DNA of 48,176 bases from Alphaproteobacteria bacterium (GTDB lineage: Bacteria > Pseudomonadota > Alphaproteobacteria > CAAGCB01 > CAG-977): the NCBI GenBank assembly GCA_051888155.1, contig JBJFAY010000153.1:1-48176 (forward strand), written 5' to 3'. Below are positions 27,638 through 48,176 of this stretch, piece by piece (positions within the stretch are counted from its first letter, which is position 1; each line of letters starts with the position of its first letter). The translations under genes and the position numbers were made by a program. The notes beneath the pieces were generated by a model. It worked only from the letters and a program-made list of their open reading frames with translations, did not search any database and had not been told where the DNA came from.

Positions 27638-27713
27638 TGGCGACCCTAACGGGACTTGAACCCGTGTTGACACCTTGAGAGGGTGCTGTCCTAACCAATT
27701 AGACGATAGGGTC
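27638..27713 (-). tRNA. tRNA-Glu (CUC)
   Basis: The 76-nt reverse complement folds as GACCCTA-TC-GTCT-AATTGGTTA-GGAC-A-GCACC-CTCTCAA-GGTGT-CAAC-ACGGG-TTCAAGT-CCCGT-TAGGGTC-G-CCA. Anticodon is CTC and CCA is encoded. Confidence 0.88.
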
Positions 27714-27876: not shown

Positions 27877-28686
27877 ATGTTTTCATGCCGATTGAAAACC
27901 TGTCCGGTGTCTTTGCTGTTCAGATCCTTTTATGATAAATTGCTGGCTGAAGGATATATTCTTGCCGGACACGGAATCGGATTTTCTCCGTTGTTTGTGC
28001 TGGCGGTGTTGTCTGCTTTGGTCTATGCCGTTTATTCGATTTTGTTCCTGAATGCATTTTCTCCGGAAATAATTACTGAAAAAGTTGTGGATCTGCCGAC
28101 GATTGAAATCCGGGACGGAAAAATTGTCGAACCTGAAAACTTTTTTCAGCGTTTCGCCTTGGGAAACGGCATGCACCTGACTTTGGATACGACCGGAGAT
28201 ACCGAAATTATCAAAGATCCGTCTCCCAATGAAATTTATGTTTCAAAAGACGGAGTGCAGTTCGTTAAGGGACAAAAAGTTGAATTAATGCCGATCAGCA
28301 AGCTCTTGGGAACGGACAACATAACGATTACGGCGCAGAATATAACGGATTTTGTCAATAGAGCCACTGATGAAATGACATTCGTTATGCCGTTGTTCGT
28401 CTTTTTGATCGCTATACCGGTTTTGTTCCTTAAGTATGTTGTTTTGGTTTACATTCTGGCGCTGTTTTCATATATAGCGACATTGTTTTCAAAGGCTTCT
28501 CTTCATTTCGAAGCCAGAATGAGACTGGCGGCCGTTTCGGCGATTCCGGTGCTCGTATTTAATTTCTTTTTCGGAACATTGTTCGGGTTATTCGATTTAG
28601 GGGTAATCGCGGGGGTTATTATTACGTTGGTTTACCTTTATTTCTATATTTCCCAAATGCCGGTTCAACAGACGGCGGAAGAATAA
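27877..28686 (+). CDS. DUF1189-like polytopic membrane protein, paralogue 1
   Basis: 269 aa. AGGAGG RBS. N-terminal TM, extracytoplasmic block DLPTIEIRDGKIVEPENF (resembles the lP.F.i.nG.L block of DUF1189/MalA-like proteins), then 3-4 C-terminal TM segments. Same architecture as 28767-29552. Confidence 0.6.
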   Translation: MFSCRLKTCPVSLLFRSFYDKLLAEGYILAGHGIGFSPLFVLAVLSALVYAVYSILFLNAFSPEIITEKVVDLPTIEIRDGKIVEPENFFQRFALGNGMHLTLDTTGDTEIIKDPSPNEIYVSKDGVQFVKGQKVELMPISKLLGTDNITITAQNITDFVNRATDEMTFVMPLFVFLIAIPVLFLKYVVLVYILALFSYIATLFSKASLHFEARMRLAAVSAIPVLVFNFFFGTLFGLFDLGVIAGVIITLVYLYFYISQMPVQQTAEE

Positions 28687-28766
28687 CAAAACGATTTTCC
28701 GATTGCTAAAAAGAAACATTTGCGTGTACACTTTGTAACTGATTGATGTTGCAAACCGGAGCGCAA

Positions 28767-29552
28767 ATGTTTTCTTTTCTTTATCGTGTTTTTTATGACA
28801 GGACGTTGTTCGGATCGTTTGTTAAAAACGGTAAAGGTTATGGTTTAAAACCGCTGTTCGTCTTGACATTGTTCGCAGCGTTTTGCCTGTCGGTCAGAAT
28901 TTTTTTAATCTTTTGTGCCGTAACGCCGCAGCTGGTTGATCAGATCGCGGAACAACTGCCTGAAATCATTATTGAAAAAGGAAAAATTGTTTCTCCGGAA
29001 AATTATGAATATTCTTATGTCCTTGCGGATCAAAATGTCTTTTTTGTCTTTGATACGACCGAAAAACCCCTGAAGTTGAAAGATTTGCCGAAAAACGGCA
29101 TTTATATTACTTCTGATGCGTTAATTTCCGTTAATGCGGATAGAATCAGGCGGATTCCTTTTGTTCAACTGCTGAATGGAAAAAACTTGATTCTTAATCA
29201 AACGAATATGCGGCAGTGGGGAAATGAAACAATTTCTTTGTTTCGCATTATATTCCCGCCGATTTTGTTCTTTTTCAGTATTCCGGGGGTGTTGAGTCTG
29301 TATTTTCTGCTGTGTGTGTTTTATGCGGTTATTTCATACTTTATGACGCATATTACCGCAGACCGTCTGCAGTGGGATCAAAGAATGCGGCTGGCGGCTT
29401 TATCCGTTATGCCGGCTTGTATATTAAATGCCGTCGGCTTTTTGTTGGGCTGTTCTTTCCGGCTTAGCAGAATAGAAATCTTTATTACGTTGATTTATAT
29501 GTTCTGTTTTTTAAAAGACGGCCGTCGCACTGCGGCTTCCGGCGCTGATTAA
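28767..29552 (+). CDS. DUF1189-like polytopic membrane protein, paralogue 2
   Basis: ATG 28767 with a GGAG RBS (the track start at 28743 is a TTG). MFSFLYRVFYDRTLF... and QLPEIIIEKGKIVSPENY parallel paralogue 1. Confidence 0.6.
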   Translation: MFSFLYRVFYDRTLFGSFVKNGKGYGLKPLFVLTLFAAFCLSVRIFLIFCAVTPQLVDQIAEQLPEIIIEKGKIVSPENYEYSYVLADQNVFFVFDTTEKPLKLKDLPKNGIYITSDALISVNADRIRRIPFVQLLNGKNLILNQTNMRQWGNETISLFRIIFPPILFFFSIPGVLSLYFLLCVFYAVISYFMTHITADRLQWDQRMRLAALSVMPACILNAVGFLLGCSFRLSRIEIFITLIYMFCFLKDGRRTAASGAD

Positions 29553-29983
29553 AACAGTTCGTCTACAAATAAATACAACGCTTCCGAAAAAGTCGGAAAA
29601 CTGCAGCTGTCTGAAAAATCCAAACGGTTAATAATATGGTATTTTTGATCAATGCTGTCATAGACGAATAATTCTTCCGCTGCGCGCCCTAACAGCAGCT
29701 TTCCCCGCATCGGAGCCGCTTGCTGAAATTCCAGATTGGCTTCAATCAGTCCCGGCAGCGTATAACCCAGCGCTTCTCTGTCATTAGCCCGCGTCCCGTA
29801 TAATTCCACGCCGTTCCAGCTCAGGCCGTCCGTTTGTTTTAATAACGCAATATAATCTACGGGAACAGGCGGAAAACGGTGCGAAGACAGCAAAGAGCTG
29901 ATAAAACGCAGAGATCGTTCGTCTACAGGGTCAAAAAAAGTACCGTTGTCTTTTCTTAAAGTATTTAAAATTCTTGTCAGCAT
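29549..29983 (-). CDS. SMI1/KNR4 (SUKH)-like protein, putative immunity protein
   Basis: 144 aa. FPPVPVDYIALLKQTDGLSWNGVELYG ... LLLGRAAEELFVYDSIDQKYHII follows the SUKH-1 pattern (lP.dY..fl...nG ... l..fg..g...y.yd). Starts 4 nt after the HNH-like gene. Confidence 0.5.
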   Translation of the reverse strand: MLTRILNTLRKDNGTFFDPVDERSLRFISSLLSSHRFPPVPVDYIALLKQTDGLSWNGVELYGTRANDREALGYTLPGLIEANLEFQQAAPMRGKLLLGRAAEELFVYDSIDQKYHIINRLDFSDSCSFPTFSEALYLFVDELF

Positions 29984-29987
29984 TTCC

Positions 29988-31094
29988 CTAACGCCCCAAA
30001 GAAGATTTCTGCGCGATCATTTCAAACGTACTTTCCAAGAATCCGGCATAAACGCTTCTGTCATGACGGCTGGTTCCTCCGGAAGAGATTTCAATTTCAC
30101 CCGGGAAATAAACTTTTCCTTTCGGTGCAGGCAAAAATAACTTGCGCGGTTTAAAATTCGGCTGCGCCAGAGTCTGCATATCAAGGAATCTGTGGATTTC
30201 CGTATGAAAAGGGTGCGTCTGAATCAAAACCAGATTTGAAAAACTGTTTGTTCCGCCATAATCAAACGGAATACGGATATGGATATTGAAATTTTCGGGC
30301 GCTTTTCCTTTTTTGACCAGTTTAATTGCTTCTTCCGTCATGCCGGCGGCCAATAATTCATTTACATGATGATAACCGACATACTTTAAAAAATCGCGCC
30401 GGGTTCTTTTAAAAGCCTTGCGTAATTCCAGCAGCCAAGCGGAATCCAAGGGAACAAATTCGGCTTCAATCAAATCCATATTAACCAGTCCGGTTTGCTG
30501 AAACTGCCATTCCCACAAAGCTTTGTCTTCCTGTCTGGGGTCGGACATGACAGGCGTCTGCGCCGTTTGCGGCTGTTGCGCGGCATAGGGCTGGGCATAA
30601 GACTGAGGAGCTTGAGGCACATATGACTGATAAGACTGTGATGCCTGCGATCCGTATGGATGAGGCGCATACGGCTGCTGCGGATAAGGCATATAAGGCT
30701 GCGGGTGTCCCGGATAAGGCTGAGTCGCATACGGCTGTTGCTGCGGATAAGGCATGTAAGGCTGCGTCGGATAGGGCGTTCCCGCATACCCCGGCGGCGC
30801 CTGAGGCGGCATAACGGGACGCTGCTGGTATGGCTGAGATACAGGAGACTGTTGCGGATAAGATGGCGGTACGGCAGAATACGACGACTGAGGTGCCGGA
30901 ATATCCAGCGGATCCGGATAAGCCGACGCCGGCGCTGTCGGCGGTAAAGTTCTGTAAGCGCGGGAATCTCTGTAAATCGGCACGGGACGAATTTCACGGC
31001 GCACAGGCGTCACACCTTGATTCTGTGCTTCTTCTGCGGCTTCACCCCGTGAACGTACGGGCGGCGGTGTTTTAGTTCCCGACCAATCCCACAT
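29988..31094 (-). CDS. Bipartite protein: Pro/Gln/Tyr-rich low-complexity N-terminal half plus C-terminal HNH/EndoVII-like domain (putative nuclease toxin/effector)
   Basis: 368 aa. GGGGGA RBS. Residues about 45-185 are PYPQQ-type low complexity. Residues 270-305 read NIHIRIPFDYGGTNSFSNLVLIQTHPFHTEIH, which fits H-x3-P-x3-GG-x5-NL-x2-L...H-x3-H. Confidence 0.5.
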   Translation of the reverse strand: MWDWSGTKTPPPVRSRGEAAEEAQNQGVTPVRREIRPVPIYRDSRAYRTLPPTAPASAYPDPLDIPAPQSSYSAVPPSYPQQSPVSQPYQQRPVMPPQAPPGYAGTPYPTQPYMPYPQQQPYATQPYPGHPQPYMPYPQQPYAPHPYGSQASQSYQSYVPQAPQSYAQPYAAQQPQTAQTPVMSDPRQEDKALWEWQFQQTGLVNMDLIEAEFVPLDSAWLLELRKAFKRTRRDFLKYVGYHHVNELLAAGMTEEAIKLVKKGKAPENFNIHIRIPFDYGGTNSFSNLVLIQTHPFHTEIHRFLDMQTLAQPNFKPRKLFLPAPKGKVYFPGEIEISSGGTSRHDRSVYAGFLESTFEMIAQKSSLGR

Positions 31095-31128
31095 TTTTCC
31101 CCCGTTTCAAATATCCTGTTAAAAAGGA

Positions 31129-33447
31129 CTAGAACTTTTCATCAATAAAGTCGTCGTAATTTTCGTTATCGTATTCTCCTTCTTCCCCCTCATCTTCGTC
31201 GTCGTCGTAGCCTTCTTCATCTTCGTCGAAATCATCAATATCATATTCCTGATATTCTTTGATAAGTTCGTCCGTACTATCTTCTTCTTCCTCTTCCGCG
31301 ATATCTATCAATCCCTGCAATGCATTGACGTCCGTATCTTCACGCTGTGCGACAACCCAGTATGGCACGAACGGGGAAGGCGGAATATTACATTTTCTTG
31401 TCATTTCTTTGTCTAAAAACCAACGCGGCGCATCTGCCATAATCGGGCGGTTCATGAAACCTTGCATTAAAACGATTTGCTGCGTTGAAGGCAAAGACAA
31501 CATTTGCGAAGCGCCGATTACGGCCGTTCCCTGTAAAGAACGCGAAACGTTGGCCGAAAAAGGAGTCGCCTGTTTCGACCAACCTTCTGTTCTTGATTTC
31601 GAAGCGATTTCAACCGTTTTTGTCCCGATCATTTTTTCAAAACGCTGTGCGGTCTGTTCGTTGTTCTGTGACAAAATAATTTTAGCCGCCGTCGTGGAAA
31701 TAATCGTTTCCAAGTCGTCTTTTCCGTATTGGCCGGAAATTTGCCCCAAATCTTGCCCGATTAACAGATAAGACACTTTTTGACCACGCCCGACCGCCGG
31801 TCCGTCTTTTACTGCCCCCAATTTGGGCATTTGCGGAAATTCGTCGAGTACAAATAAAGTCGGAAACGGTCCGGTCATTGATCCGTCGCCTTGTTTGAAA
31901 TTCGGCGGATTAGCAATCAGGAAGTTACTCATCAATTCAACGAACGTGCCCGTAATAATATTCAAAGCGCGGGCGTCAACCTGGTTCACGGACAAATAAA
32001 TCGCAATGGATTTCATTTCTCCGGTAATCGGATCTTTCATACCGCGCAAATCTTTAAAAATAAAGTCGCTCATTTTTGTTCTGGAACGTACGGCAGAGTT
32101 TTTGAAAATACCGATACCGGTCAGCGCCGTTGATAAAATAGATCCGCGTTCTTTGTCCGGCGTTCCCGACAGTTGGTTTAATTCAACAACGGCACGGTGG
32201 GCGTAGCCGTATCGTTTACATTCCGCAACGGCTTGGTCCAGCATGTCGCGCATCGGGTCGGCCAGTGCGGCCATTTGATCGCCTTCTTCTGTCTTGCGTT
32301 TGATTTCCGCCGCCATTTGCATTTGCGCTTCGGTCAGCCAGTCCAAAATCATGGCAATACACGGTTCTGCTCCCACCCATGATTCCGGCAGCATTTCCCA
32401 TGTGCCGATCGGAACATAGTTGTTTAAATCCAGTGTGCCGTTGCGCAGGTGATCCAAAGCTTCGGCCGCGTCGGCGTCCGTCATGTCCATATAATATCCT
32501 TCAAGGACTTCGCGGTCTTTATCGTCCAGCTTTCCTTCATAAAGCTTTCCAATGAAGTAGTCATTAGCTCTGGCGCGTTCGCATTTACCGACAACGAAAT
32601 GAATAAAGCCGGTTAATGCATTTCGGCCGGTCTTTGCCCAGTGCGGGTCTGCCCCGCCTTTAGGTTCTTCGACCAAAACGTTGACCATGGAATCGACATA
32701 CATATCGCGTGCCGGGCCGAACGGAGGCAGACATGTACCGGACAACATATTCCAACTGGGATAATAAATTCCTTTTTCCGGTTCGTCTTCAGCCCCCCAG
32801 TTAATGACGAAAACAGGGCCGATAGTCTGTCTGTAACCGCTTGTTTTATAACATAATTCAGGCTTCGGGTCGTTTACGATGATGCTGATATTGTTTGATT
32901 CGAAAATTGTAGGCATAACGACGCCGACCGTTTTACCTGTTCCCGGAGGCGCCAGCACCAAAACGGACAATGTTTCCGGCAACCGCAACAACTTGCCGTG
33001 CCAGCGCCCCAAAACGACGATAAAACCTCTGAACAATCCCATTTTTTCAATATCTTTTTTAGTGGCAATGCGTCCTGAGCCATGAATGGTTGATAACCAG
33101 GAATGCGGATTTGTCACCAGTCCCGTTGTCAGAATAGCAAAAAAAGAAAAGAACGGGATTATCGGCAGCCAGAAATAAAAAGGCAGAGAACTATGCGCTT
33201 TAAAAGCTTTCATCAGCCATTTCCAATAAATATTCAGCAGGTACATATCCGTGGGATCGAAGCATTTTTTTGCAAAACGCCAAACCTGCAGCATATTATC
33301 CTGACTGATTCCCCGAGGAATCAGATTCGTCAGTGCAAAAGCAATAATCGCAAGCAGATAAGATACAACAAGAGCAAGCATGACCGTAACGACCACCCAT
33401 TGTATTGCGGCATCTCTTTCTGCCCATTCCTCTCCTTTTCTTGCCAT
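31129..33447 (-). CDS. virD4: Type IV secretion coupling protein (VirD4/TraG family) with highly acidic C-terminal tail
   Basis: 772 aa. N-terminal TM segments. HGSGRIATKKDIEKMGL, Walker A VLVLAPPGTGKTVGVVMPT, IVNDPKPE, Walker B LFVLDEFPQMPKL, LLIGQDLGQISGQYG. The last ~60 residues are almost entirely Asp/Glu/Tyr. Confidence 0.85.
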   Translation of the reverse strand: MARKGEEWAERDAAIQWVVVTVMLALVVSYLLAIIAFALTNLIPRGISQDNMLQVWRFAKKCFDPTDMYLLNIYWKWLMKAFKAHSSLPFYFWLPIIPFFSFFAILTTGLVTNPHSWLSTIHGSGRIATKKDIEKMGLFRGFIVVLGRWHGKLLRLPETLSVLVLAPPGTGKTVGVVMPTIFESNNISIIVNDPKPELCYKTSGYRQTIGPVFVINWGAEDEPEKGIYYPSWNMLSGTCLPPFGPARDMYVDSMVNVLVEEPKGGADPHWAKTGRNALTGFIHFVVGKCERARANDYFIGKLYEGKLDDKDREVLEGYYMDMTDADAAEALDHLRNGTLDLNNYVPIGTWEMLPESWVGAEPCIAMILDWLTEAQMQMAAEIKRKTEEGDQMAALADPMRDMLDQAVAECKRYGYAHRAVVELNQLSGTPDKERGSILSTALTGIGIFKNSAVRSRTKMSDFIFKDLRGMKDPITGEMKSIAIYLSVNQVDARALNIITGTFVELMSNFLIANPPNFKQGDGSMTGPFPTLFVLDEFPQMPKLGAVKDGPAVGRGQKVSYLLIGQDLGQISGQYGKDDLETIISTTAAKIILSQNNEQTAQRFEKMIGTKTVEIASKSRTEGWSKQATPFSANVSRSLQGTAVIGASQMLSLPSTQQIVLMQGFMNRPIMADAPRWFLDKEMTRKCNIPPSPFVPYWVVAQREDTDVNALQGLIDIAEEEEEDSTDELIKEYQEYDIDDFDEDEEGYDDDEDEGEEGEYDNENYDDFIDEKF

Positions 33448-33579
33448 TTAGGGGGAGCACTCCTTAAAACATTACAAAAAAACCTTATTTAAGTATAAGA
33501 GAAATAAGAACAAAAATCTACATTCTCTCATCATTTTTTCATGAGAATGCCACAGAAAAGTAAAAAAAAGATAAGTAAA

Positions 33580-34617
33580 TCAGTTTAATACGCTGGAAAC
33601 GCTGTGATACAGACTGTCATCAGGAGGCGAAACAGCGGAAACGGCACTTGGCAGCGCCGTAATTTCATCAGGGCCGCCCTCTTCGTGGCGGCAAACGATA
33701 ACATTCAGTCCGTTCCAAACCTCGAACATATCTTCCGCGTTAATGATCGTTCCCTGACGAATAATAACCATCGCTTTGATTTCCATGCCGTTAGCCGCTC
33801 CGCTGAGCATGGGACCCAAAGCGTCACGTGCGTTCAAAATGACGCGAACCGGAGAAATACGGTGATTACTTTCGGAAAACCATAACGGTTCTTCATCATT
33901 AAATCTTTCTTCGTCCGCCAGCCAGTCTCCGCTTTCCGAATCAATTAAACATAACAGAATGTGACTGGCGGAAACAGCGACAAAGTCGATTTTCTTTCCC
34001 GCGATTTTAGCATCGGAAATCAGCCTGTAACCGGCCGAACGCAAAACGTCCATAATGGAATTGCCCGCAATGGAAGATTCTGCCGAACTACGTTGAGCGG
34101 CGGGAGCCGTCTCGTGTGAACGTTCAACAACCGGAGCAGCCGCTGCAGCCGGCAAAGTTTCCTTTTCTTTTTCCGGCGCTTTTTCCGGGTGTTTAATGCG
34201 GCCTGATCCGGCTCTGACCGCAGGAGGACGGGTTTGTTTATAAGACTTCTTTTTAGTAACTTTCGGTCTGGCGGCGTTCTTTTCTTTTTTACGTTCTTTT
34301 GATTTGCTTACTATAAATCTGATCGGGAACAACAAGATAATTTTAAACCATTTGATCCATGGAACCGCACATAAAACGGCCCACCCCGTAAACCAAAGCG
34401 GCAACATTGCAAACAACGCAATGACAAACAGCCATTCCCGTACGGACTGGATTACCCAGCCGTTTTGCCATTCATTCCAGATATAAATCCAATGTACTTT
34501 GGACATCGGATTGAATCCCCACATGGCAATCATCAGGCGCTGAAACCAAAAGAAATATCCGATTGTCCAGACAAATAAAATGAAAAAAATTCGTGAAACG
34601 GCAAAGATTATTTTCAC
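33580..34617 (-). CDS. Hypothetical membrane protein with NERD-like C-terminal domain, paralogue A
   Basis: 345 aa. GTG start at 34617 with a GGGAGA RBS. N-terminal TM module with HWIYIWNEWQNGWVI, a Lys-rich linker, and C-terminal KIDFVAVSASHILLCLIDSESGDW...ISPV. Confidence 0.6.
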   Translation of the reverse strand: MKIIFAVSRIFFILFVWTIGYFFWFQRLMIAMWGFNPMSKVHWIYIWNEWQNGWVIQSVREWLFVIALFAMLPLWFTGWAVLCAVPWIKWFKIILLFPIRFIVSKSKERKKEKNAARPKVTKKKSYKQTRPPAVRAGSGRIKHPEKAPEKEKETLPAAAAAPVVERSHETAPAAQRSSAESSIAGNSIMDVLRSAGYRLISDAKIAGKKIDFVAVSASHILLCLIDSESGDWLADEERFNDEEPLWFSESNHRISPVRVILNARDALGPMLSGAANGMEIKAMVIIRQGTIINAEDMFEVWNGLNVIVCRHEEGGPDEITALPSAVSAVSPPDDSLYHSVSSVLN

Positions 34618-34638
34618 CGGTCAATTCTCCCAAATAAC

Positions 34639-35742: not shown

Positions 35743-35801
35743 GTGACGATCCTGTAATTTGAACAATTAAATATAGAATATAAAACTATTCGGGCAAATG
35801 T

Positions 35802-35832
35802 CAAAAAGAAAGGGAGCCGCAAGCTCCCTTTC
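35802..35832 (-). terminator. Rho-independent terminator after the Lys/Asp-rich protein gene
   Basis: Minus strand reads gaaagggagc / ttgcg / gctccctttc followed by tttttg. This splits the minus-strand block into at least two transcripts. Confidence 0.7.
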
Positions 35833-35846
35833 TTCAGGGAAAAAAA

Positions 35847-36977: not shown

Positions 36978-37084
36978 TGAAGTTCTCCTTCAGAATTTGA
37001 TCAATATACTTACTAAAGTTAAGCATACGGAAAAAAATTTTTTTTGTCCAGAGCGTCATTAAAAATTCATAAAACGGCTTTTTG

Positions 37085-38173: not shown

Positions 38174-38414
38174 ATCTTTCTATTTTTGTTACGGTTTGTA
38201 TCAATTTAAAATAATATGTTGAGGCCAAAAGGCTTTTCTGTCAACATTATAAAAAAAATCACATCGATGCGATAGTGTTTTGATCAAAAATCAAAAAAGT
38301 GTCATATTTCTTTGTATGATTTTGTTCTATCATGAATAATAAGGTTTTTGCAGATTGACTGTTGCAATTGTATTCTGTCTGTAAATATAGGCTTTACCTG
38401 AAAGGAAGTTCGGC
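38174..38414. promoter_or_regulatory. Divergent control region between the two T4SS-related gene blocks
   Basis: 241-bp AT-rich spacer between divergent starts 38173 (minus) and 38415 (plus). Contains inverted repeats TGTTGA-N18-TCAACA (38217-38246) and TTGAT-caaaa-ATCAA (38280-38294). Confidence 0.4.
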
Positions 38415-40595: not shown

Positions 40596-40689
40596 CTGAT
40601 AGATTGAAGGAAACGGGAAAAATTAAGATAATGCTTTAAATATCTTCGTTACAATAAAACACGGTTTTACAAAGTTTAGGAATAGGCAA

Positions 40690-42297
40690 ATGTTAAGACA
40701 TAGAATAACATTTTTAAAAAAGAGCGATATCGCACGTTTTGTGTGCGTACTATTCCTTTGCCTTTGTTTAGGAATGCTGTGCGGTTGTGAAGATACTGCT
40801 CCTAATTCACATTCGCAGGGGGAACTGGCGGTTGCTGCAGAAAAGGAAACGCTGAACTGCTGGACATGTTCGCTTTTTAAATTAGGGTTTGGTGTTGCGA
40901 ACAGTTTGGCAACGAGCGTGGTTAAATCTGTCGCCGGCAGTGCGCTTTCCCTGCTGGCGGTCGGTTACGGATTATGGCTGGCTGTATATATTTTAAAGCA
41001 GGTTTCTTCAATGCAGGCGCCGGATCCCGGAGCTTTTTGGAAAGGACTGGCCGTACAGACGTTTTTTGTTACGCTGGGAGCCGGAATGTTGCGGGATTTA
41101 TCCGGAGAGGGAGAATCTTCCTCGTCTGTTCTGGAAATGATCGTCAAACCTATTTTTTCCGGTTTTGTTGATGTCGGATTATTGGTTGTCGGCGGCTTTG
41201 GGGATCTTCCCTGTTCTGCAGGAGGGGATCCCGGCGTCGGTATGGAGTGTCTGGTTGAGGCATTGCAGCAAAAACTGAATGTCGGAGTCGCTTTTGCTTA
41301 TCTTAACGCAACGACCGGGCCGACAATTTTCAGTATTATTCTGGGGGTCATTGTTTATTGTTTTTTCATCTACATGATGCTTTATTTCCCGCTGTTGTTG
41401 CTGGATTGTGTGTTCAGGTATTGCATTGTTCTTGCAATGTTGCCTTTAAGTGTGACGGCCTATTGCTTTAAATGTACGCGAGATTTTGCGACGCAAACCG
41501 TAAAGCTTTTAGTGGAAATCGGTTTGGGTATTACCGGTATGTGCGTTTTTATTGCGGTCGTTGTTGAAGTTGTTCGAGAATATATTGATACTTTTTTACC
41601 ATACATTCAAAATCCGACTTCTCTTTTAAGCGATCCGATGATGCTTGATAAAGCTATACAGGGACCGGGCATGACAGGACTGATGTTTGTGTTAACTTTC
41701 CTATGCATTTTCGGCGGCGTGGTTCTTGAATTGATGGAAAATTTCTCTCAAGGTATGGGTGGACTGGGAAGTACGGTCAAAGAAACCATTGGCGCTTTCA
41801 AGGGGGGGGCCGCTATGGCTAAACAGTTAGGCAAGTTTGCGGTCAACCGGAGAGCCAGAAAAAATGACGCCAAAGCTAAAAAGACAAAACAAGCTTTGGA
41901 AGCGAAAAAAGCCAGCGGAAAAACACTGTCGAAAGATGAACAAAAAGCTCTGGATAAGGCGAACGGTCGTTTAATGTTTCGCGGTTATTTGGCTCAGGAT
42001 AAAAACGGTCACATGTCGCAGGACAAAGGAGCCAGTCTGCATAAAACAAAAGCTTATGACAACTTGGGCAAAGGCGGTGTTAGAAATGCTTTGAAAAATT
42101 TGTCGGAAGATTGGAACAGCGATGTAATGGGCAATGCTTCGCGTCATGATCACAGCCATAACAAAGTTTCCGAAGAAGGTTTTACAGGGGATTTGAAAAA
42201 GGATAATTTGGTAAATGATATGTATGGAGATAAGTCTCTGAGGCAGCGCATGGGAGACGGCCTGAAAAAGGGAATGAAAAATCTTGTAGGCGATTAG
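40690..42297 (+). CDS. virB6: VirB6/TrbL-family protein, paralogue 2 (lipoprotein-like signal), with ~170-aa basic C-terminal extension
   Basis: 535 aa. LGMLCGC lipobox-like signal. CWTCSLFKLGF motif. LLAVGYGLWLAVYILKQV. VLAMLPLSVTAYCFKCTRDFATQTVKLL. Confidence 0.72.
   Translation: MLRHRITFLKKSDIARFVCVLFLCLCLGMLCGCEDTAPNSHSQGELAVAAEKETLNCWTCSLFKLGFGVANSLATSVVKSVAGSALSLLAVGYGLWLAVYILKQVSSMQAPDPGAFWKGLAVQTFFVTLGAGMLRDLSGEGESSSSVLEMIVKPIFSGFVDVGLLVVGGFGDLPCSAGGDPGVGMECLVEALQQKLNVGVAFAYLNATTGPTIFSIILGVIVYCFFIYMMLYFPLLLLDCVFRYCIVLAMLPLSVTAYCFKCTRDFATQTVKLLVEIGLGITGMCVFIAVVVEVVREYIDTFLPYIQNPTSLLSDPMMLDKAIQGPGMTGLMFVLTFLCIFGGVVLELMENFSQGMGGLGSTVKETIGAFKGGAAMAKQLGKFAVNRRARKNDAKAKKTKQALEAKKASGKTLSKDEQKALDKANGRLMFRGYLAQDKNGHMSQDKGASLHKTKAYDNLGKGGVRNALKNLSEDWNSDVMGNASRHDHSHNKVSEEGFTGDLKKDNLVNDMYGDKSLRQRMGDGLKKGMKNLVGD
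41802..41809. repeat. G(8) homopolymer inside virB6 paralogue 2
   Basis: ttcaa-GGGGGGGG-ccgct encodes ...FKGGAA.... Confidence 0.9.
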
Positions 42298-42359
42298 GAG
42301 GCGCTATTTAGACTGGTTAAAAAAAACGTATTCTTTGGCGAGGGGAAAAGGAGCAAAAA

Positions 42360-42575
42360 ATGTCCAAGTTAAAACAATATATTGTTTTTGGCGGGTTATT
42401 GTTTCTTTTTCAAATGGATTCTGTAAAACGAATTTTTCAGTCGCCGTCTTTTTTGAATACGGTTTTGGGGGGTATCGGGATTTTATTGGTTATAGCGGTG
42501 ATTATAACAATTTCTGCTCAAAAACGTCAAAAAAAGCAGAAAGAAAATGAAGACGATAGGGCTTCAATATTATAA
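42360..42575 (+). CDS. Small 2-TM membrane protein (hypothetical)
   Basis: 71 aa. AAAGGAG RBS. Two hydrophobic segments (IVFGGLLFLF and VLGGIGILLVIAVIITI) and a basic/acidic tail. Confidence 0.55.
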   Translation: MSKLKQYIVFGGLLFLFQMDSVKRIFQSPSFLNTVLGGIGILLVIAVIITISAQKRQKKQKENEDDRASIL

Positions 42576-42591
42576 AGGAAGGTTTTGGCAA

Positions 42592-44019
42592 ATGACGAAA
42601 CATGTTACGTTAAAACGATTAGTGATCGGAGTGCTGCTGTTTTGCGGCGTGTTTGCCTATACTTCCATTCATTCCGCTCATGCTTTCAGCATTTATGATA
42701 AGAAAATGGAAGACGTTTGCGATTCATGGTCTCAGAATATGCAGGACTATCAAGGGCAGGAACATTGCTGGACATGTCAGATTTTCGTACTGCTTTTTGA
42801 TGCTGCCAACAAAGCGGCCGGACAAATTAACAATGCCTTATCGCCTCCAATTATGAAAGCTGTTGTTACTCTTTGTTCGTTATGGCTGGCCATTCACACG
42901 CTGATTTTTTTCAGCGATGTGGGGAGCGCTCCTAATTTAATGGCATTTTTAACAAAAATCGGGGGTATGATGATCCGGGTCGGGTTCGGTTATGCCCTCT
43001 TGGCCGGCGGGGCTCAGCTGGCTTTTGATTATGTTATCAATCCTGTTTTGACAGACGGGGCAAAATTGGCGACAACTGTTTTGTCAACGACGGGACTTTC
43101 CCCGGGGTGTGAATTTACTTCCAGCGGCGGCGGTTCGCCGACAAGCGGGCCGATGGGGCAAGAGGTACGCGAATCTTTGAAATGTATGATTGAAAAAATT
43201 GCTTCCGGCATGGCGCGCAGTCAGTCAATCGCACAAGGGTTGCGTTGCGGTGCAATGTTTTACGATTTCGGATTCCTTAATCCGTTCCCGCATCCGGGCA
43301 TGTGGATTGTAGGGGCAACTTTTGGGTGCTTTTTCTGGTTTATTTCTTTCCTGTTCCCGTTGGTTATGCTGGACGTTATTTTCCGGATCGGATTAATGGC
43401 CGGTATGCTGCCGTTGTTTGTCGCGGCTTGGATTTTCCCGATTACGGCCTCATATGCAAAAAAAGCATGGGATATTTTCTTGCAGTCTTGTCTTGTTTTC
43501 GTCGTAACGGGGCTGATTGTTTGTATACTTGTGGCTCTGGTTGACCAGTCTTGGGGAGCCGGCGATCAGACGATCATAAATGCTTTTCAGCAGAAAATGG
43601 AAGCTAACCAATATACAGATGCATGGGACGAGCTGTTTTCCGGCGGAGTCGGCAGAGGATTGGTAAATTTATTCCTGGTGCTGTGCGTTTGCTTCTGGGG
43701 CGTAGGCATTGCTTCTAAATCAGACAAAGTGGCAAATGAGTATGTGGGAGAAGGAAAATATCCGGACAATTGCGCGGTTAAGGCCATTGAAGCAATAATC
43801 AGTTTTATTTTTGATGTGATTATGGCGGTTATTACAATTCTTACTTTTGGCGCGACGTCTTGTCTGTATCTTTTCAAACTCGGTAAATATATGTCCGACA
43901 GTGCGAGAAAGCTTCAGGAAATTATCAGGCATCTCAGAAGGATAAAAGAAAAAGTACAAAAAATTCAGCAAAAAATGCAAAAGCTTCAGAAGGTGGCTTT
44001 CCATCAACGGGATAAATAA
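42592..44019 (+). CDS. virB6: VirB6/TrbL-family protein, paralogue 3
   Basis: ATG 42592 (MTKHVTLKRLVIGVLLFCGVFAYTSIHSAHA signal) follows an AAGGAAGG RBS. CWTCQIFVLLFD motif. TLCSLWLAIHTLIFF. MAGMLPLFVAAWIFPITASYAKKAWDIFL. The track start at 42547 overlaps the small ORF. Confidence 0.72.
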   Translation: MTKHVTLKRLVIGVLLFCGVFAYTSIHSAHAFSIYDKKMEDVCDSWSQNMQDYQGQEHCWTCQIFVLLFDAANKAAGQINNALSPPIMKAVVTLCSLWLAIHTLIFFSDVGSAPNLMAFLTKIGGMMIRVGFGYALLAGGAQLAFDYVINPVLTDGAKLATTVLSTTGLSPGCEFTSSGGGSPTSGPMGQEVRESLKCMIEKIASGMARSQSIAQGLRCGAMFYDFGFLNPFPHPGMWIVGATFGCFFWFISFLFPLVMLDVIFRIGLMAGMLPLFVAAWIFPITASYAKKAWDIFLQSCLVFVVTGLIVCILVALVDQSWGAGDQTIINAFQQKMEANQYTDAWDELFSGGVGRGLVNLFLVLCVCFWGVGIASKSDKVANEYVGEGKYPDNCAVKAIEAIISFIFDVIMAVITILTFGATSCLYLFKLGKYMSDSARKLQEIIRHLRRIKEKVQKIQQKMQKLQKVAFHQRDK

Positions 44020-44057
44020 ACGTCCAATTTTGAAATTTTCCATTTTATCTGACAAAG

Positions 44058-44088
44058 AAAACTCCGTTTTAAAAACGGAGTTTTTTTT
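44058..44088 (+). terminator. Rho-independent terminator ending the virB6 block
   Basis: aaaactccgtttt / aaaaacggagtttt hairpin with an 8-T run. Confidence 0.8.
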
Positions 44089-44197
44089 GAAATACGGTTT
44101 TTTGCGCACCCGGGTGTTGTAATTTTTTTTCAAACCAGCTATAAAAAGAAGGGCTGGGGTATTTTGGCCTTTGATTGACAGATAAGGGGCATTGTGA

Positions 44198-45193
44198 ATG
44201 GAAGAGATTATCTTTCCGAATCAGATTCGTATGTATCGCCGTGTGCGCGGCCGTTCAATGCAGGAATTGGCTGATTTTTTAGGCGTCAGTCTTTCTGCGG
44301 TCAGTAAAATCGAAAAAGGCTACAGACGCATAGATCAGGAACAGTTGGTTCGTATCGCGGAATTTTTGGATTGCCCGTTACAGGAAATCTTTGTGAACGA
44401 AGCCAGTTCTCAGCCTGATGTAGTTCAGGCCTGGCGGCGCGAACAGGAGCGGCGCAACCGTGTGAATGAACGCGGCGGTTTGAAAATGCTGGGGGCCGGG
44501 TTGCGTTATATCCGCGGCCAGAAAAATCTGACATTGGCAGACGTGGCGGACGGTTCCGAACTGACTTTGTCCGTTTATCATCGTATCGAAATGGGGCAGC
44601 GCGAAGTTTCCGAAGACGAAATTTCCAGAATTGCCCGGGCGCTGGGGTATACAAATGATGAACTGCAAAAACAAATCTATGATTTGGACAAAGCCGGCGC
44701 TTTGGAAGAATTTATTCAAAGAAATGATGCGCGTTACCGCACGATTTCCGGTGTGAAAACAGGATACCCCGAATTGCCTGTATCAAAGGTCGGCGGAGTC
44801 AGGCAGGAACGTACGGACGTTGTCTTGCAGGTTTATGGTCAGGCCGGTGAAAACGGCACGGTTATTATTGATCGTCAGGCGGCTTTAGGCACGGTGACCT
44901 GTTCTGCCGGCGCGGTTAATCCGATGTCGTCTTATGCTGTTTCCTTATGTACCCGTCGTTTAGGGAATTTATTGCCGGCGCGTTCGATATTGATTGTTGA
45001 TCCGACGAAAATGGTCGGGCTGGGCGATATTGCCGTTATGTATATTAATGAAACGGAAGCCCGTTTAATCAGTGTACGCGAAGATATTGACGGCAGAATG
45101 TTCGGCGTTTTATGGAATCCCGAAGAAAAAATCGAAATTCCCGAAGATAAAGCTTCGGCTTTGCACCGGGTAGTTCAGATTCATTTACCGTAA
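44198..45193 (+). CDS. XRE-family regulator with two HTH domains and a C-terminal S24 (LexA/CI)-like domain
   Basis: 331 aa. HTH 1 is IRMYRRVRGRSMQELADFLGVSLSAVSKIEKGYRRI. HTH 2 is LRYIRGQKNLTLADVADGSELTLSVYHRIEMGQREV. The C-terminus YAVSLCTRRLGNLLPARSILIVDPTKMVGLGDIAVMY has S24-like topology, but GNLLP replaces the G-(D/N)-S-M-x-P serine motif. Confidence 0.7.
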   Translation: MEEIIFPNQIRMYRRVRGRSMQELADFLGVSLSAVSKIEKGYRRIDQEQLVRIAEFLDCPLQEIFVNEASSQPDVVQAWRREQERRNRVNERGGLKMLGAGLRYIRGQKNLTLADVADGSELTLSVYHRIEMGQREVSEDEISRIARALGYTNDELQKQIYDLDKAGALEEFIQRNDARYRTISGVKTGYPELPVSKVGGVRQERTDVVLQVYGQAGENGTVIIDRQAALGTVTCSAGAVNPMSSYAVSLCTRRLGNLLPARSILIVDPTKMVGLGDIAVMYINETEARLISVREDIDGRMFGVLWNPEEKIEIPEDKASALHRVVQIHLP

Positions 45194-45212
45194 AAAGATA
45201 AAAATAAAAAAA

Positions 45213-45245
45213 CGCCGCGGATTAAAGATATGTTAATCTGCGGCG
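45213..45245 (+). terminator. Possible terminator hairpin after the XRE gene (weak U-tract)
   Basis: cgccgcggatt / 11-nt loop / aatctgcggcg (one G-U pair). The downstream T-run is poor. Confidence 0.3.
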
Positions 45246-45262
45246 TCGTAGTATTATGCTGA

Positions 45263-45285
45263 ATATCCCTGAATTGCAGGGATAT
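45263..45285. promoter_or_regulatory. Perfect 9-bp-stem palindrome upstream of the long repeat-protein ORF
   Basis: ATATCCCTG-aattg-CAGGGATAT, 26 nt upstream of ATG 45311. Candidate operator or RNA hairpin. Confidence 0.3.
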
Positions 45286-45310
45286 ATAGCCGTGCCTGTT
45301 TGGAGAAGAA

Positions 45311-48176
45311 ATGAGCCCGCCGAAAAAGGATATGAAAAAATGGAAGCCGAAGTTTCCCGGTGCGGCGTCAGACGGGGAGGAAGACCCGTATGTAACGGCT
45401 CAGCGTTTTGTTAATGTTTACAGGCAGATGCATGTTTTGCGCGAGGATCTGGTATCGCGTTATAATGATATGCTGTTGGAAATTACTCCGGAAGCGCGAT
45501 CGACTCTGACGGATATACCGGGCGGTCGGGACGTGCGCGATTATCTGGAATATTTGGAGCATCAGAAATACGGGGACGATTACGTTTCTCAGGAAGATGA
45601 TGACGATGTGCTGGTTTCCAGGGAAGAAAAAGCCAAAGCGAAAGCGATTGCCGACGCTTTATCTTCCGCGCAGGAAAAGATGAATCAGAACCAGATGGCC
45701 GTCATGCAGCAAGCGCAGGAAGAATCCCGGCGCAATATGGAAATGCTGGCAAAGACGTTGTCCGAAGCCCGGCAGGATCCTTCCCGTCGTGAAGAAGCCG
45801 CCGAGTTGGCTCAGTCTTTGAAAAAAGCAAAGGAAGATTACTCTCATCTTGCCGCCGATTTGGGGGAAGCCGAAACGGCGTCGGAAATTGAGAGCGTTCA
45901 TGAAAAGTTGCGTTCTCAATATGCTCAGGCGCAGCAGGCGGGCAACGTTATCCAGGGCGGGCTGGAACAATTGTCGGACAAAGGGGCCAAAGGATTGGAC
46001 GCTTTGGTTTCCGCTTTGACGGAAGCGCAGGTAAAGTCGGCTGAACTGCAGGCAAAAGCGCAGTCGGAAACAATGGCCAAAATTTTTTCGCAAAGCCAGG
46101 AAATGACGGCGCGGGCAATGGCGGAGGCATTCGCCAAGTCACAGCAAAGCGCGGCGGAAGTTCAAGGCAGCCTGATTGCCAAAGCGATTGCCGATTCTCA
46201 AAAACATGCGAATGAAACGCTGGCGTCTTTGTTCGCTTCCATTCAAAGAGGGGGCAGTCTGCCGGCAGCGGCGCCGCCGCAAATTGTTATAGAAAATAAT
46301 AATTCGGCGGCTTCGGCGATTCAGTCCGAGAATATAGCCGTTCAAATCAAAGCGATGGTTCAGGCGCAGGTCGAAGCGCAAAAAGAAATTCTGGAAATGC
46401 AGAAAAAAGCGATGACCGAAGCCGCGTCGGTTCCGCAGATGATGGGCGGCGGCGTGGGTATGTCTGCGGCGGAACAGGCGAAGATGATTGCAGACGTAGT
46501 CGCGCAGACGCAAAGCTCTGTTTTGACGGAAACGATGGGGCAGCTGATGCATCGTCAGGAAGAATCGCAGCGTTTTCAGGCAACATTGATGGCGGAGGCT
46601 TTTTCAAAGCAGACGCAGGAAATTGCTTTGGCTTTATCGAATGCGCAAAAAGCGGTTCGTAACGAAACGCTGGCTTCTCAGGCGCAGGCTGTCGCTCAGG
46701 CAATGATTCGGGCGCAGACGGCGACGCAGTCTGAAACGATTACGGCTCAGGCTAAAGCGATAGCGACGGCAATGACGGAATCGCAGAACGCGCTGCAAGC
46801 GGAAGCTTTGGCGACACAGGCGCGCGTCGTGGCCGAAGCGGTCGCGGAATCTCAAGCCAACGTTCAGCGTGATGTGCTGGCTGAACAAGCGCGCGTCGTG
46901 GCTGAGGCGATGTCTGAATCTCAGGCCAGCGTGCAGGCGGAAGCTTTAGCGACACAGGCGCGCGTCGTGGCTGAAGCGGTGGCGGAATCTCAAAGCGCCG
47001 TTCAAAAAGAAGTCTTGGCGGAACAAGCGCGCGTCGTTGCGGAAACGCAGGCGACTATTCAACGTGATGTGCTGGCTGAACAGGCGCGCGTCGTGGCTGA
47101 AGCGGTGGCGGAATCTCAAGGCGCCGTTCAAAAAGAAGTCTTGGCGGAACAAGCGCGCGTCGTTGCGGAAACGCAGGCGACTATTCAGCGCGATGCTTTG
47201 GCTGAACAGGCGCGCGTTGTGGCCGAAGCGGTGGCGGAATCTCAAAGCAGCGTACAAACAGACGCTTTGGCTGAACAGGCGCGTGTTGTGGCTGAAGCAA
47301 TGGCGCAGCAACAAAATACGTCTTTATCCGAAACGGTTGAATTGTTAAGTCAGAAACAAATGGATCAGACTTCGGCTTTGGCGACGGCGTTAGCGAAACA
47401 ACAATCAAAGACGCAGGAAGTCATTCATACTTGGGCTCAGGGCAGTCTGCCTGCCGGAGGAGGATCCGGAGTACCGCCCACTCAGCCGCCCGTGCACGAA
47501 TATTATGATACGCCGTATACGTCGGGGTACGAAGAGGCCGCGGTAGAATCTCCGGTTCAGGAAGAAAGCCAGCCCAAAAAGAAATCGCGTGAACTGCCAA
47601 AAATGGATTTGTCCGATTGGAATGCTAATTTGGACGAAGCTTTTTCTTTGTCACAAAAAGCCGCTGCCGAAGCCGGTTACGATTTGGACGATAATTGGGG
47701 ATACGGTTATGCCGATGCGTCCAGTGAAGAGGTAGATTATTCCGCTTCCGATCAACAGGAAGACGTTTATAACTATCAGGACACGGAAGGGTACGAAGGC
47801 GATCAGGCTTATTATGATTATCCGCAGGAAGATCAAGGACTTTACGGTTATGTCGCTGCCGGTAATTACGGGGCTTATTATTACACAGATGAAAACGGCA
47901 ATCCGTATTATTTAGATACGAACGGTAATCCGTATTATGTTGACGAAAACGGGCAGGCTTATTATGTCGATGAAAACGGGCAGGCGGTTTATTTCGATCC
48001 GAATACTGTCGGAGAACAGACTCCGGAACAGGAAGCGCCGGCTTATTACACAGATGAGAACGGCAATCCGTACTATTTAGATGCGAACGGCACTCCGTAC
48101 TATGTTGATGAGAACGGACAAGCTTATTATGTCGATGAAAACGGGCAGGCGGTTTATTTCGATCCGAATACTGTCG
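45311..48176 (+). CDS. Large repeat-rich coiled-coil protein with Tyr-rich C-terminal repeats (partial; continues past window end)
   Basis: I translated this frame by hand from ATG 45311 (GGAGAAGAA RBS) to 48176 and found 955 codons with no stop. Absent from the ORF track, apparently because it has no stop in the window. Ala/Gln/Glu-rich with AEQARVVAEAVAESQ repeats, then YYTDENGNPYYLD repeats. Confidence 0.8.
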   Translation, partial: MSPPKKDMKKWKPKFPGAASDGEEDPYVTAQRFVNVYRQMHVLREDLVSRYNDMLLEITPEARSTLTDIPGGRDVRDYLEYLEHQKYGDDYVSQEDDDDVLVSREEKAKAKAIADALSSAQEKMNQNQMAVMQQAQEESRRNMEMLAKTLSEARQDPSRREEAAELAQSLKKAKEDYSHLAADLGEAETASEIESVHEKLRSQYAQAQQAGNVIQGGLEQLSDKGAKGLDALVSALTEAQVKSAELQAKAQSETMAKIFSQSQEMTARAMAEAFAKSQQSAAEVQGSLIAKAIADSQKHANETLASLFASIQRGGSLPAAAPPQIVIENNNSAASAIQSENIAVQIKAMVQAQVEAQKEILEMQKKAMTEAASVPQMMGGGVGMSAAEQAKMIADVVAQTQSSVLTETMGQLMHRQEESQRFQATLMAEAFSKQTQEIALALSNAQKAVRNETLASQAQAVAQAMIRAQTATQSETITAQAKAIATAMTESQNALQAEALATQARVVAEAVAESQANVQRDVLAEQARVVAEAMSESQASVQAEALATQARVVAEAVAESQSAVQKEVLAEQARVVAETQATIQRDVLAEQARVVAEAVAESQGAVQKEVLAEQARVVAETQATIQRDALAEQARVVAEAVAESQSSVQTDALAEQARVVAEAMAQQQNTSLSETVELLSQKQMDQTSALATALAKQQSKTQEVIHTWAQGSLPAGGGSGVPPTQPPVHEYYDTPYTSGYEEAAVESPVQEESQPKKKSRELPKMDLSDWNANLDEAFSLSQKAAAEAGYDLDDNWGYGYADASSEEVDYSASDQQEDVYNYQDTEGYEGDQAYYDYPQEDQGLYGYVAAGNYGAYYYTDENGNPYYLDTNGNPYYVDENGQAYYVDENGQAVYFDPNTVGEQTPEQEAPAYYTDENGNPYYLDANGTPYYVDENGQAYYVDENGQAVYFDPNTV
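46802..47305. repeat. Tandem coding repeats (126-nt / 42-aa unit built from 23- and 19-aa subrepeats)
   Basis: gctgaagcggtggcggaatctcaa at 46970 recurs at 47096. Protein unit is AEAVAESQxAVQKEVLAEQARVVAETQATIQRDxLAEQARVV, with more degenerate copies on both sides. Confidence 0.85.
47876..48176. repeat. 165-nt (55-aa) tandem repeat at the C-terminal part of the long ORF
   Basis: ttacacagat at 47881 recurs at 48046. Unit is YYTDENGNPYYLD(T/A)NG(N/T)PYYVDENGQAYYVDENGQAVYFDPNTVGEQTPEQEAPA. The second copy is cut by the window end. Confidence 0.85.

Follow-up and report, generated by a model that had tools for sequence, protein, structure and literature searches.

Type IV secretion systems (T4SSs) of the rvh type are marked by multi-copy VirB6, duplicated VirB8, VirB9 and VirB4, the lack of VirB5, and genes scattered over several islets (PMC2653234, PMC11077975), and ancestral rvh systems have been proposed to kill congeners (PMC11077975). 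Multi-copy VirB6, duplicated VirB8 and scattered islets are treated as an order-level rickettsial signature, so a comparable set of genes in another lineage bears on the origin and purpose of these traits. For T4SSs that kill bacteria, nuclease effectors have been described (PMC11253643). Here we analyzed a contig of 48,176 nt from an Alphaproteobacteria bacterium (JBJFAY010000153.1, assembly GCA_051888155.1); the window mentioned below is this entire 48-kb contig. We consider it likely that the part from 29.5 kb to the contig end is an islet of a vertically inherited, chromosomal P-type (VirB/VirD4) T4SS particular to one lineage of uncultured Alphaproteobacteria from gut and rumen.

In the part of the window from 29549 to 48176, we found a VirD4-type coupling protein (T4CP), three VirB6/TrbL paralogues, a regulator with two helix-turn-helix (HTH) domains, and nine genes without a Pfam family. 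According to the open reading frame (ORF) listing and translation, these genes form two divergent blocks parted by a 241-bp spacer (38174-38414), with I-H-G-F-VirD4-D-C on the minus strand and J-K-L-M-N-O on the plus strand. The initial annotation, made from the letters of the sequence, had proposed these ORF coordinates, the two blocks and the spacer between them, as well as a Pro-rich I, a Lys/Asp-rich H, paralogous membrane proteins F and G, and an HNH-type motif in D, and all of these were reproduced. Its impression that many of the genes belong to no family holds for the nine mentioned above; the first two genes that it had counted in with the locus (27877-29552) are a DUF1189 pair. With Pfam and NCBIfam profiles, we scanned fifteen ORFs at 27.9-48.2 kb (L and the longest ORFs that do not overlap) and, at 1-27 kb, ten of the larger ones. 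As annotated before, no VirB2-5, VirB7-11, relaxase or integrase was found among these scanned ORFs.

Further core parts of the machine were found in sister clades, whose N is about 60% identical to that of the window. There, a convergent VirB11 (PF00437, 78 bits) comes after R, the last gene of the O-P-Q-R unit described below, and then a giant VirB10 (TrbI, 114 bits). The gene order reads VirB8a, VirB7-like, VirB8b, VirB9 (CagX), a 1138-aa protein, VirB10 and VirB11, then R-Q-P-O-N, then four VirB6 genes, and six secreted coiled-coil proteins lie upstream of the VirB8-VirB11 cluster. VirB8 is present in two copies (66 and 89 bits), and VirB9/CagX in one per locus. VirB8b matched seven PDB chains at E<=0.01, all named simply VirB8, which we take to be the Bartonella, Agrobacterium and Brucella proteins. 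Using VirB probes from an Erythrobacter plasmid, we also detected the VirB7-like ORF and, at the edge of a sister-clade contig upstream of the module, a C-terminal fragment of VirB4 (40% identity, E 2e-14); the best PDB matches of this fragment were to the corresponding C-terminal residues of TrwK/VirB4, weak at E 0.48. The 120 listed VirB11 matches to a sister-clade query were all sister-clade proteins with at least 93% identity, and one VirB11 allele of the system occurs on at least 1000 contigs and in 4062 collection blocks. The VirB10 of the sister clades measures 1.2-1.5 kaa (thousand amino acids) and has eight beta-flower repeats (L084:16640-20968 and L094:11702-15118 are listed, L numbers denoting related loci), and the 1138-aa protein between VirB9 and VirB10 carries beta-flower, DUF3659 and RHS-type repeats.

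In the sister clades, VirD4 has an islet of its own with four genes, F-VirD4-D-C, and the housekeeping genes on either side differ by clade. In the window, this VirD4 islet is fused to the VirB6-N-O islet, and in the window clade RNase J follows R. The distribution of these genes points to a full P-type T4SS in this lineage, with its genes spread over islets that differ by clade. The earlier proposal that the window holds one piece of a scattered T4SS fits the sister-clade module adjoining VirB8a-VirB7-VirB8b-VirB9-VirB10-VirB11, with the VirB4 fragment upstream and VirD4 in an islet of its own.

According to exact-protein lookups and a genome scan, the hosts are uncultured gut and rumen Alphaproteobacteria represented by metagenome-assembled genomes (MAGs), Rhodospirillales-type by NCBI lineage, with names including 'Alphaproteobacteria bacterium', 'Acetobacter sp. 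CAG:977', 'Azospirillum sp.' and 'Candidatus Scatocola'; we take this lineage to be GTDB order RF32. Relatives of N were found in 407 species-representative genomes. About 75 of 80 fetched loci keep the order of three to five VirB6 genes, N and O, mostly followed by P-Q-R, and the whole 15-gene order from A to O recurs in relatives whose VirD4 is 88-93% identical. For all genes, the ratio of nonsynonymous to silent divergence (dN/dS) was 0.01-0.3 (N 0.015, C 0.02, VirD4 0.06, VirB6 copies 0.11-0.28), and judged from these ratios all genes of the locus are under purifying selection. Because the synteny holds in about 75 species MAGs, selection is purifying, and the module is contiguous with VirB7-11 in the sister clades, the locus appears to be neither a remnant nor a mobile element. 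A decayed remnant, which the initial annotation had kept as an alternative, was rejected on dN/dS and synteny. An integrative conjugative element is unlikely, despite the tRNA-Glu (CTC) gene on the minus strand directly left of the cassette (27638-27713); neither relaxase nor integrase/recombinase occurs among the scanned window ORFs or in the gene tables of related loci.

An anti-phage defence system was also considered and rejected by PADLOC, where C, D, F, G, H and I gave no match, N matched generic HTH models only, and VirD4 matched the mad8 model weakly. Three locus contigs (L027, L081 and P0204) were deposited as Limosilactobacillus gorillae, Gastranaerophilales and Lactobacillales, and are most likely mis-binned MAG contigs. 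No description of a T4SS in this gut lineage was found in the literature searched.

The coupling protein (E; 772 aa, 31129-33447, minus strand) passed the curated thresholds of PF02534 (191 bits, cutoff 20.1), PF12696/TraG-D_C (72.4, cutoff 22) and PF10412/TrwB_AAD_bind (64.6, cutoff 20.5), in agreement with its earlier assignment as VirD4. Walker A (LAPPGTGKT, aa 165-173) and Walker B (LFVLDEFPQM, aa 531-540) are as annotated before; two N-terminal hydrophobic segments (aa 11-45 and 87-108) and a strongly acidic C-terminal tail complete the layout. On NCBIfam equivalog models, with cutoffs of 250-728 bits, VirD4 reached 148 bits. As these models match only in part, the window VirD4 is best regarded as a divergent family member. 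Its identity is 88-95% inside the window clade and 62-70% to the sister clades. The closest annotated VirD4, 35% identical, lies in a canonical VirB2-B11 locus on an Erythrobacter aureus plasmid, which also carries a MobA/MobL relaxase.

Upstream of VirD4 lie two membrane proteins, F (33580-34617, minus strand) and G (34639-35766, minus strand), which are paralogues (BLASTP E 2e-27). In the alignment, both begin with a hydrophobic transmembrane domain at the N-terminus, followed by a basic linker and by a C-terminal globular domain that is conserved but belongs to no family. Neither matched anything in Pfam, NCBIfam, PDB sequences, plasmids or PADLOC. A NERD or PD-(D/E)xK nuclease domain was considered for F/G and dropped, as no significant match was obtained. 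An F-type gene stands directly upstream of VirD4 in all clades (the orthologue was seen in L108 and L110), and the presumed mini-operon F-VirD4-D-C is conserved across clades. Since F, D and C accompany VirD4 in every clade examined, they are the most promising candidate partners of the coupling protein. The earlier suggestion that the family-less genes belong with the T4SS therefore stands in so far as F, D and C track VirD4 across clades, but homologues of D-C also occur without a T4SS, in a type VI secretion system (T6SS)/Rhs context in Photobacterium.

C (144 aa, 29549-29983, minus strand) is the last gene of the VirD4 mini-operon and the partner of D. It had been labelled SUKH-like, a label that no model reproduced (no Pfam family at E<=0.1); instead, it belongs to the YrhA family (NCBIfam NF038335, 62.4 bits, above the cutoff of 55). 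C is 82-98% identical within the clade and 34-50% identical to sister clades, lies downstream of D every time, and may be called immunity-like by its genomic context. D (368 aa, 29988-31094, minus strand) begins with a conserved N-terminus (MWDWSG...), continues with a Pro/Gln/Tyr-rich linker that varies, and ends in an HNH-type (beta-beta-alpha-metal) domain, whose motif spans aa 270-301 (30192-30287). Residues H272, N287, H297 and H301 are unchanged in seven orthologues, and the pattern H..P..GG..N-L..H..H is kept across clades. The top PDB match of D was the HNH domain of the pyocin AP41 DNase, aligned on the motif at E 0.074. Further, D is 30-33% identical to plasmid genes annotated as 'HNH endonuclease' (pairwise E 6e-19), with its residues aligned on the HNH motif. 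A single-sequence AlphaFold2 model of the D C-terminal domain was too poor for use, with a predicted local distance difference test (pLDDT) of 46.5.

At the third position before the conserved Pro, all D orthologues have Ile or Leu instead of His (IHIRIP, IHLRVP, VHLKIP, VHLKYP), while D homologues read VHHKIP (plasmid HNH proteins) and IHHVVP at the same site. We take this His to be the general base, at the position of H103 in colicin E9 and H840 in Cas9. Because the predicted general-base His is replaced in all orthologues, D should be described as HNH-derived and should not be filed as an active HNH nuclease. Genes similar to D were found on 458 plasmids, of which 433 are conjugative. On one IncHI2 plasmid, taken as an example, the HNH homologue is followed by a YrhA-family gene within the transfer (Tra2) region, beside TraG_N and TrhH. 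On a Photobacterium toruni plasmid, the HNH/YrhA pair is part of a T6SS array, with an Rhs toxin cassette ahead of it and Hcp and VgrG behind. The inspected pairs lie at L113:5401-6978 and L114:2734-4309, and no functional study of the HNH/YrhA pair was found in the literature searched. D-C is a recognizable toxin/immunity-type pair, which we infer to have descended from an HNH-toxin/YrhA-immunity pair. None of the orthologues retains the predicted general-base His, and the pair keeps its place beside VirD4 and is not polymorphic (dN/dS of C 0.02). D-C may therefore have been exapted, and today it may serve as an adaptor or cargo without catalytic activity instead of as an active DNase.

These features of D bear on the rival explanation that survives best, namely a ComB- or GGI-like system for DNA uptake or release, in which the HNH-like D, and possibly nuclease folds in F/G, would process DNA. 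The HNH-type motif of D would fit it, as would the DNA translocases in the VirD4 family, a faint match of F to a restriction-endonuclease-like Pfam model (E 0.078), and a chromosomal location without a relaxase, as in competence T4SSs. However, D lacks the general-base His, a nuclease fold in F/G has no significant support, and the D-C homologues sit in toxin/immunity contexts. We also know of no ComB system with a VirD4. We therefore regard a DNA uptake or release system as unlikely.

On the other side of the spacer, J (726 aa, 38415-40595, plus strand), K (535 aa, 40690-42297, plus strand) and M (490 aa, 42547-44019, plus strand) are mutual paralogues (BLASTP E 2e-20 to 1e-8). J has a long Lys-rich C-terminal extension, and K is a probable lipoprotein. 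Between K and M lies L (42360-42575, plus strand), a 71-aa small membrane protein that had been listed before as an ORF with two transmembrane segments and is conserved in relatives. The initial annotation had called J, K and M VirB6; this holds at the level of family and fold, while their own PF04610 scores (J 21.6 bits, K 16.1, M none) fall under the cutoff of 25.9. In an alignment of 64 VirB6 family members drawn from related loci, 38 matched PF04610 at E<=0.01, the best at E 3.4e-12. The profile of this family aligned to residues 140-230 of R388 TrwI over the conserved transmembrane region at E 0.13. This region, with the pattern 'LPLF..A..F..T', lies at 39276-39323 in J, 41440-41487 in K and 43408-43455 in M, and the paralogues have five to seven hydrophobic segments, consistent with polytopic proteins. 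We modeled J with AlphaFold2 on a 20-sequence alignment (mean pLDDT 69.7). In a Foldseek search of the PDB with this model, the top eight matches were all R388 TrwI/VirB6 chains (E 1.5e-4 to 8e-2, probability 0.89-1.00, target-normalised TM-score 0.38-0.54). Because the family-level Pfam matches, the TrwI profile match and the fold match of the J model agree, we accept J, K and M as probable VirB6/TrbL proteins at family and fold level. In a set of 5.8 billion proteins, only 18 homologues of J were found, all from this lineage and most with a precomputed PF04610 match.

The number of VirB6 copies is three in the window and three to five per locus in about 75 loci. In sister clades, one VirB6 paralogue of about 1.1-1.3 kaa has an N-terminal Peptidase_M23 domain and VgrG3-like C-terminal (peptidoglycan hydrolase) domains fused to its TrbL domain (L060:5867-9871; L089:20534-20969). 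H (376 aa, 35847-36977, minus strand), a Lys/Asp-rich low-complexity protein with internal tandem repeats, weakly resembles the C-terminal tail of J (BLASTP E 5e-6 to J aa 577-703). It evolves fast, with 36-75% identity among close relatives. I (362 aa, 37085-38173, minus strand), the first gene of the minus-strand block, has a Pro-rich repeat N-terminus, and its orthologues were found at 19 loci of the window clade only, divergent from the first VirB6 gene each time. No family match of I was obtained in Pfam or NCBIfam and none on plasmids, its C-terminal part included.

The VirB6 paralogues are only 37-55% identical between genomes that share 88-99% identity in VirD4, N and C; they differ along their length, and most strongly in the C-terminal tails. 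Compared with L006, each of the six genes from H to M had a silent-site divergence (dS) in the range 1.2-1.75. Among the flanking genes, the range was 0.4-0.65 for C, D, VirD4, G, N and O, and F stood at 0.83. The silent divergence of the H-M block was thus 2-4 times that of the flanks against L006, and it was even across genes against L032. Because it exceeds that of the flanks, the block at 35847-44019 appears to have a deeper history. The pattern suggests exchange of the whole VirB6/I/H cassette, or its maintenance as ancient alleles over a long time.

The spacer between I and J (38174-38414) had been described as a shared control region, and in an alignment of nine related loci we found blocks in it that are invariant. 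It contains an imperfect inverted repeat at about 38210-38251, an invariant 26-nt block, CAAAAATCAAAAAAGTGTCATATTTC, at about 38285-38311, and a conserved ribosome-binding region, CCTGAAAGGA, ahead of the start of J. A generic scan of the spacer for sigma-70 promoters and terminators gave nothing above the shuffled expectation, and we claim no promoter from it. The inverted repeat and the invariant block are candidate operator or promoter elements, possibly for N. Judged from strand and spacing, each strand block is presumably transcribed as one operon.

N (331 aa, 44198-45193, plus strand) is the most conserved gene of the locus (94-99% identity), lies at its hinge, and has two XRE-type HTH domains (HTH_3, 92 bits) ahead of an unassigned C-terminal part of about 150 aa. 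It had been annotated as XRE/S24-like; the first part of this name was confirmed, while N gave no Peptidase_S24 match in Pfam and in PDB matched only HTH repressors. We speculated that N controls the divergent promoters in the spacer.

Downstream of N, O (45311-48176, plus strand) runs off the contig after 955 codons within tandem repeats, as noted before; it is the first gene of a conserved O-P-Q-R unit, whose P, Q and R fall beyond the contig end. O orthologues measure 1.1-1.5 kaa; their conserved N-terminus is followed by 42-aa repeats rich in Ala, Gln and Glu, and then by 9-aa Tyr/Asp/Gly repeats at the C-terminus. The contig ends within the 126-bp and 27/165-bp tandem repeats of O (46794-48176), and most related contigs likewise break inside O, which makes it a systematic assembly breakpoint where the length of O is under-reported. 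At about 50 loci, an O orthologue is followed by P, Q and R, and the O-P-Q-R unit inverts as a block. Alignments of P, Q and R gave no significant match against PDB sequences or Pfam, and no plasmid homologues were found for F, I and R. Q is a conserved lipoprotein of about 420 aa with weak PulD-like and secretin N-terminal similarity (tblastn E 1e-6 to 2e-11). A motif near its C-terminus also gave the impression of being secretin-like, though no more than that. It resembles a 'PulD-like protein' and the N-terminal part of an adjacent secretin on a Rhodoferax plasmid, and it also matches a hypothetical protein on the Erythrobacter plasmid that carries the closest VirD4. The alignment of Q orthologues includes L014:16722-17957. 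In L020 and L035, N-O-P-Q-R occurs with housekeeping genes upstream and without an adjacent VirB6 array (N at 10001). Because these few genomes carry the unit without adjacent VirB6, the N-OPQR unit can be separated from VirB6.

This separability was also consistent with a second rival, an autonomous minimal translocon without VirB4, in which VirD4, VirB6 and the lineage genes would move protein or DNA no further than across the inner membrane. Two observations would fit: the cassette by itself shows strong conservation, and no other VirB gene was found in the 48 kb or within 10 kb of the cassette on window-clade contigs. However, in sister clades that have orthologues of VirD4, VirB6, N and O-R, the same locus holds VirB4, VirB7, two VirB8, and VirB9-11, and scattering of T4SS genes is already evident within the lineage. 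Besides, VirB4 is to our knowledge present in all characterised T4SSs. Taken together, a minimal translocon seems improbable. A conjugative or mobilisable island (or its remnant) at the tRNA-Glu, with VirD4/VirB6 serving DNA transfer, would account for the tRNA gene at the left edge, a GC dip to 0.40 there, and the conjugation-type genes whose closest annotated VirD4 lies on a plasmid with a MobA/MobL relaxase, but we consider it very improbable given no relaxase, integrase or replication gene among the scanned ORFs, the presence in about 75 species genomes with a divergence that parallels host clades and housekeeping flanks that differ by clade, the strong purifying selection, the confinement of all 18 J homologues to this lineage, and no close plasmid relatives.

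Several points weigh against the reading of the locus as an islet of a complete P-type T4SS. VirB4 and VirB7-11 were not seen on the window contig or, within 10 kb of the cassette, on window-clade contigs, and it is by extrapolation from the sister clades that the window genome would encode them on another contig. VirB2, VirB3 and VirB5 were undetected with the plasmid VirB probes in the retrieved locus DNA, which covers the fetched loci. All PF04610 scores of the window VirB6 copies are sub-threshold. Sequence and profile searches detected no homologues of known function for F, G, H, I, O, P and R, and no secretion signal, substrate or target was identified. Operon structure and the regulatory role of N rest on position. 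Finally, two features of D speak against a classical toxin: the catalytic base predicted at its motif is missing, and its sequence is conserved and not polymorphic.

Returning to the T4SS islet, we propose the following mode of action. N would regulate the divergent operons from the I-J spacer. VirD4, anchored with F/G, would recruit protein substrates and feed them to a VirB6-based inner-membrane/stalk platform. As no VirB5 homologue was seen, the variable, apparently recombining VirB6 paralogues together with H and I may supply the target-facing or specificity part, in the role of VirB5 or a pilus tip. Contact-dependent protein delivery rather than conjugation is the most likely function. 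Among its possible uses, interbacterial antagonism ranks first, with a little less than an even chance; interaction with the host comes next and seems possible but doubtful, and release or uptake of DNA is clearly less likely again. The lean to antagonism comes from the toxin/immunity ancestry of D-C, the M23/VgrG3-like VirB6 fusion, the dense gut habitat, and the congener-killing proposal for rvh.

A more specific version can be drawn up, which we put forward tentatively and as rather unlikely to be right in all its parts. It holds that this is an rvh-like multi-islet T4SS of gut Alphaproteobacteria outside Rickettsiales, with a domesticated, catalytically disabled HNH/YrhA pair and the new membrane protein F as fixed VirD4 partners, a recombining, hypervariable VirB6/H/I cassette that would set target specificity instead of VirB5 or a pilus, and a new regulator-OPQR module, structural or effector, including a secretin-N-like lipoprotein. 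If it were true, the 'rvh hallmarks' would not be a signature of Rickettsiales, and a widespread lineage of human-gut commensals would own an uncharacterised contact-dependent weapon or host-interaction device.

The genes left of the cassette differ in kind. Two paralogous DUF1189 membrane proteins (27877-28686 and 28743-29552, plus strand; PF06691, 61 and 71 bits; paralogy E 6.5e-38) are syntenic in the window clade only (L003, L006) and absent beside VirD4 in L108 and L110, and we saw nothing that ties them to a secretion system. The left 27 kb is of housekeeping content, with flagellin, PolA, a P-type ATPase and ABC transporter components. The P-type ATPase, of the heavy-metal (HMA-domain) type (7240-9738, plus strand), lies in a stretch of about 57% GC compared with about 45% in the rest of the window, and may have been acquired horizontally. 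Long Arg/Leu-rich ORFs overlap D and O in other frames, such as 30470-30997 (minus strand); rather than genes, these appear to be artefacts that arise from the composition of the Pro/Gln- and Ala-rich repeats.

Taken together, the locus is a functional-looking part of a lineage-specific variant of the VirB/VirD4 machine with several undescribed accessory components. Human and animal guts commonly harbour this lineage, and hundreds of uncultured species share the machine. Candidate accessory parts of T4SSs are F/G and O-R, without known family, and the HNH/YrhA pair fixed to the coupling protein; this pair has the look of a toxin-immunity module that was exapted. The high silent divergence of the VirB6/I/H block further offers an idea of which T4SS parts set target specificity.

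We compared this system with its nearest known counterparts. The HNH/YrhA pairs of the IncHI2 and Photobacterium plasmids share with D-C the gene order, the NCBIfam family of C, and the C-terminal domain of D (28-33% identical). However, they keep the HH dyad (VHHKIP) where D has H followed by Ile/Leu. Unique to D are its N-terminus and Pro-rich linker, and its place beside VirD4 is fixed throughout the lineage. The canonical VirB/Trw systems (R388; the Erythrobacter aureus plasmid) are related through VirD4 (35% identical) and VirB8-VirB11 (29-41%), and the J model superposes on R388 TrwI/VirB6. In contrast to them, there is no relaxase/oriT context here, the genes are dispersed, VirB6 is triplicated with extensions, and VirB10 is much enlarged in the gut sister clades. 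None of the specific genes inserted in the gut lineage is present in the Erythrobacter plasmid locus.

In proposed function, the X-T4SS of Xanthomonadales, which kills bacteria, would be the nearest known system; its defining effector recognition domain, XVIPCD, was not seen here, though no search aimed at it was made. Both are chromosomal VirB/VirD4 machines without a relaxase, both have a toxin-like protein and a small cognate-like gene beside VirD4, and both have peptidoglycan-hydrolase domains, here in the sister clades. The X-T4SS has single-copy VirB6, unlike the gut system. Further, the gut system has one highly conserved D-C pair instead of a variable effector repertoire, and its D lacks the catalytic base.

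In architecture, the likeness to rvh is the closest. Both are chromosomal alphaproteobacterial P-type T4SSs split into separate islets, with multi-copy VirB6 genes that carry big divergent flanking extensions and are conserved in a short transmembrane region only. Both have duplicated VirB8, here in the sister clades, and no VirB5 was detected in the retrieved locus DNA. Unlike rvh, the system belongs to extracellular gut and rumen bacteria, represented by MAGs, of Rhodospirillales type and not to Rickettsiales; its VirD4 is linked to VirB6, or stands alone with F-D-C, whereas the rvh VirD4 follows VirB11; it has one VirB9 per locus; and F/G, D-C, H, I, N, O-R and the giant beta-flower VirB10 are specific to the gut lineage. 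Common origin and convergence are both possible, and we describe the system as rvh-like in architecture, not as rvh.

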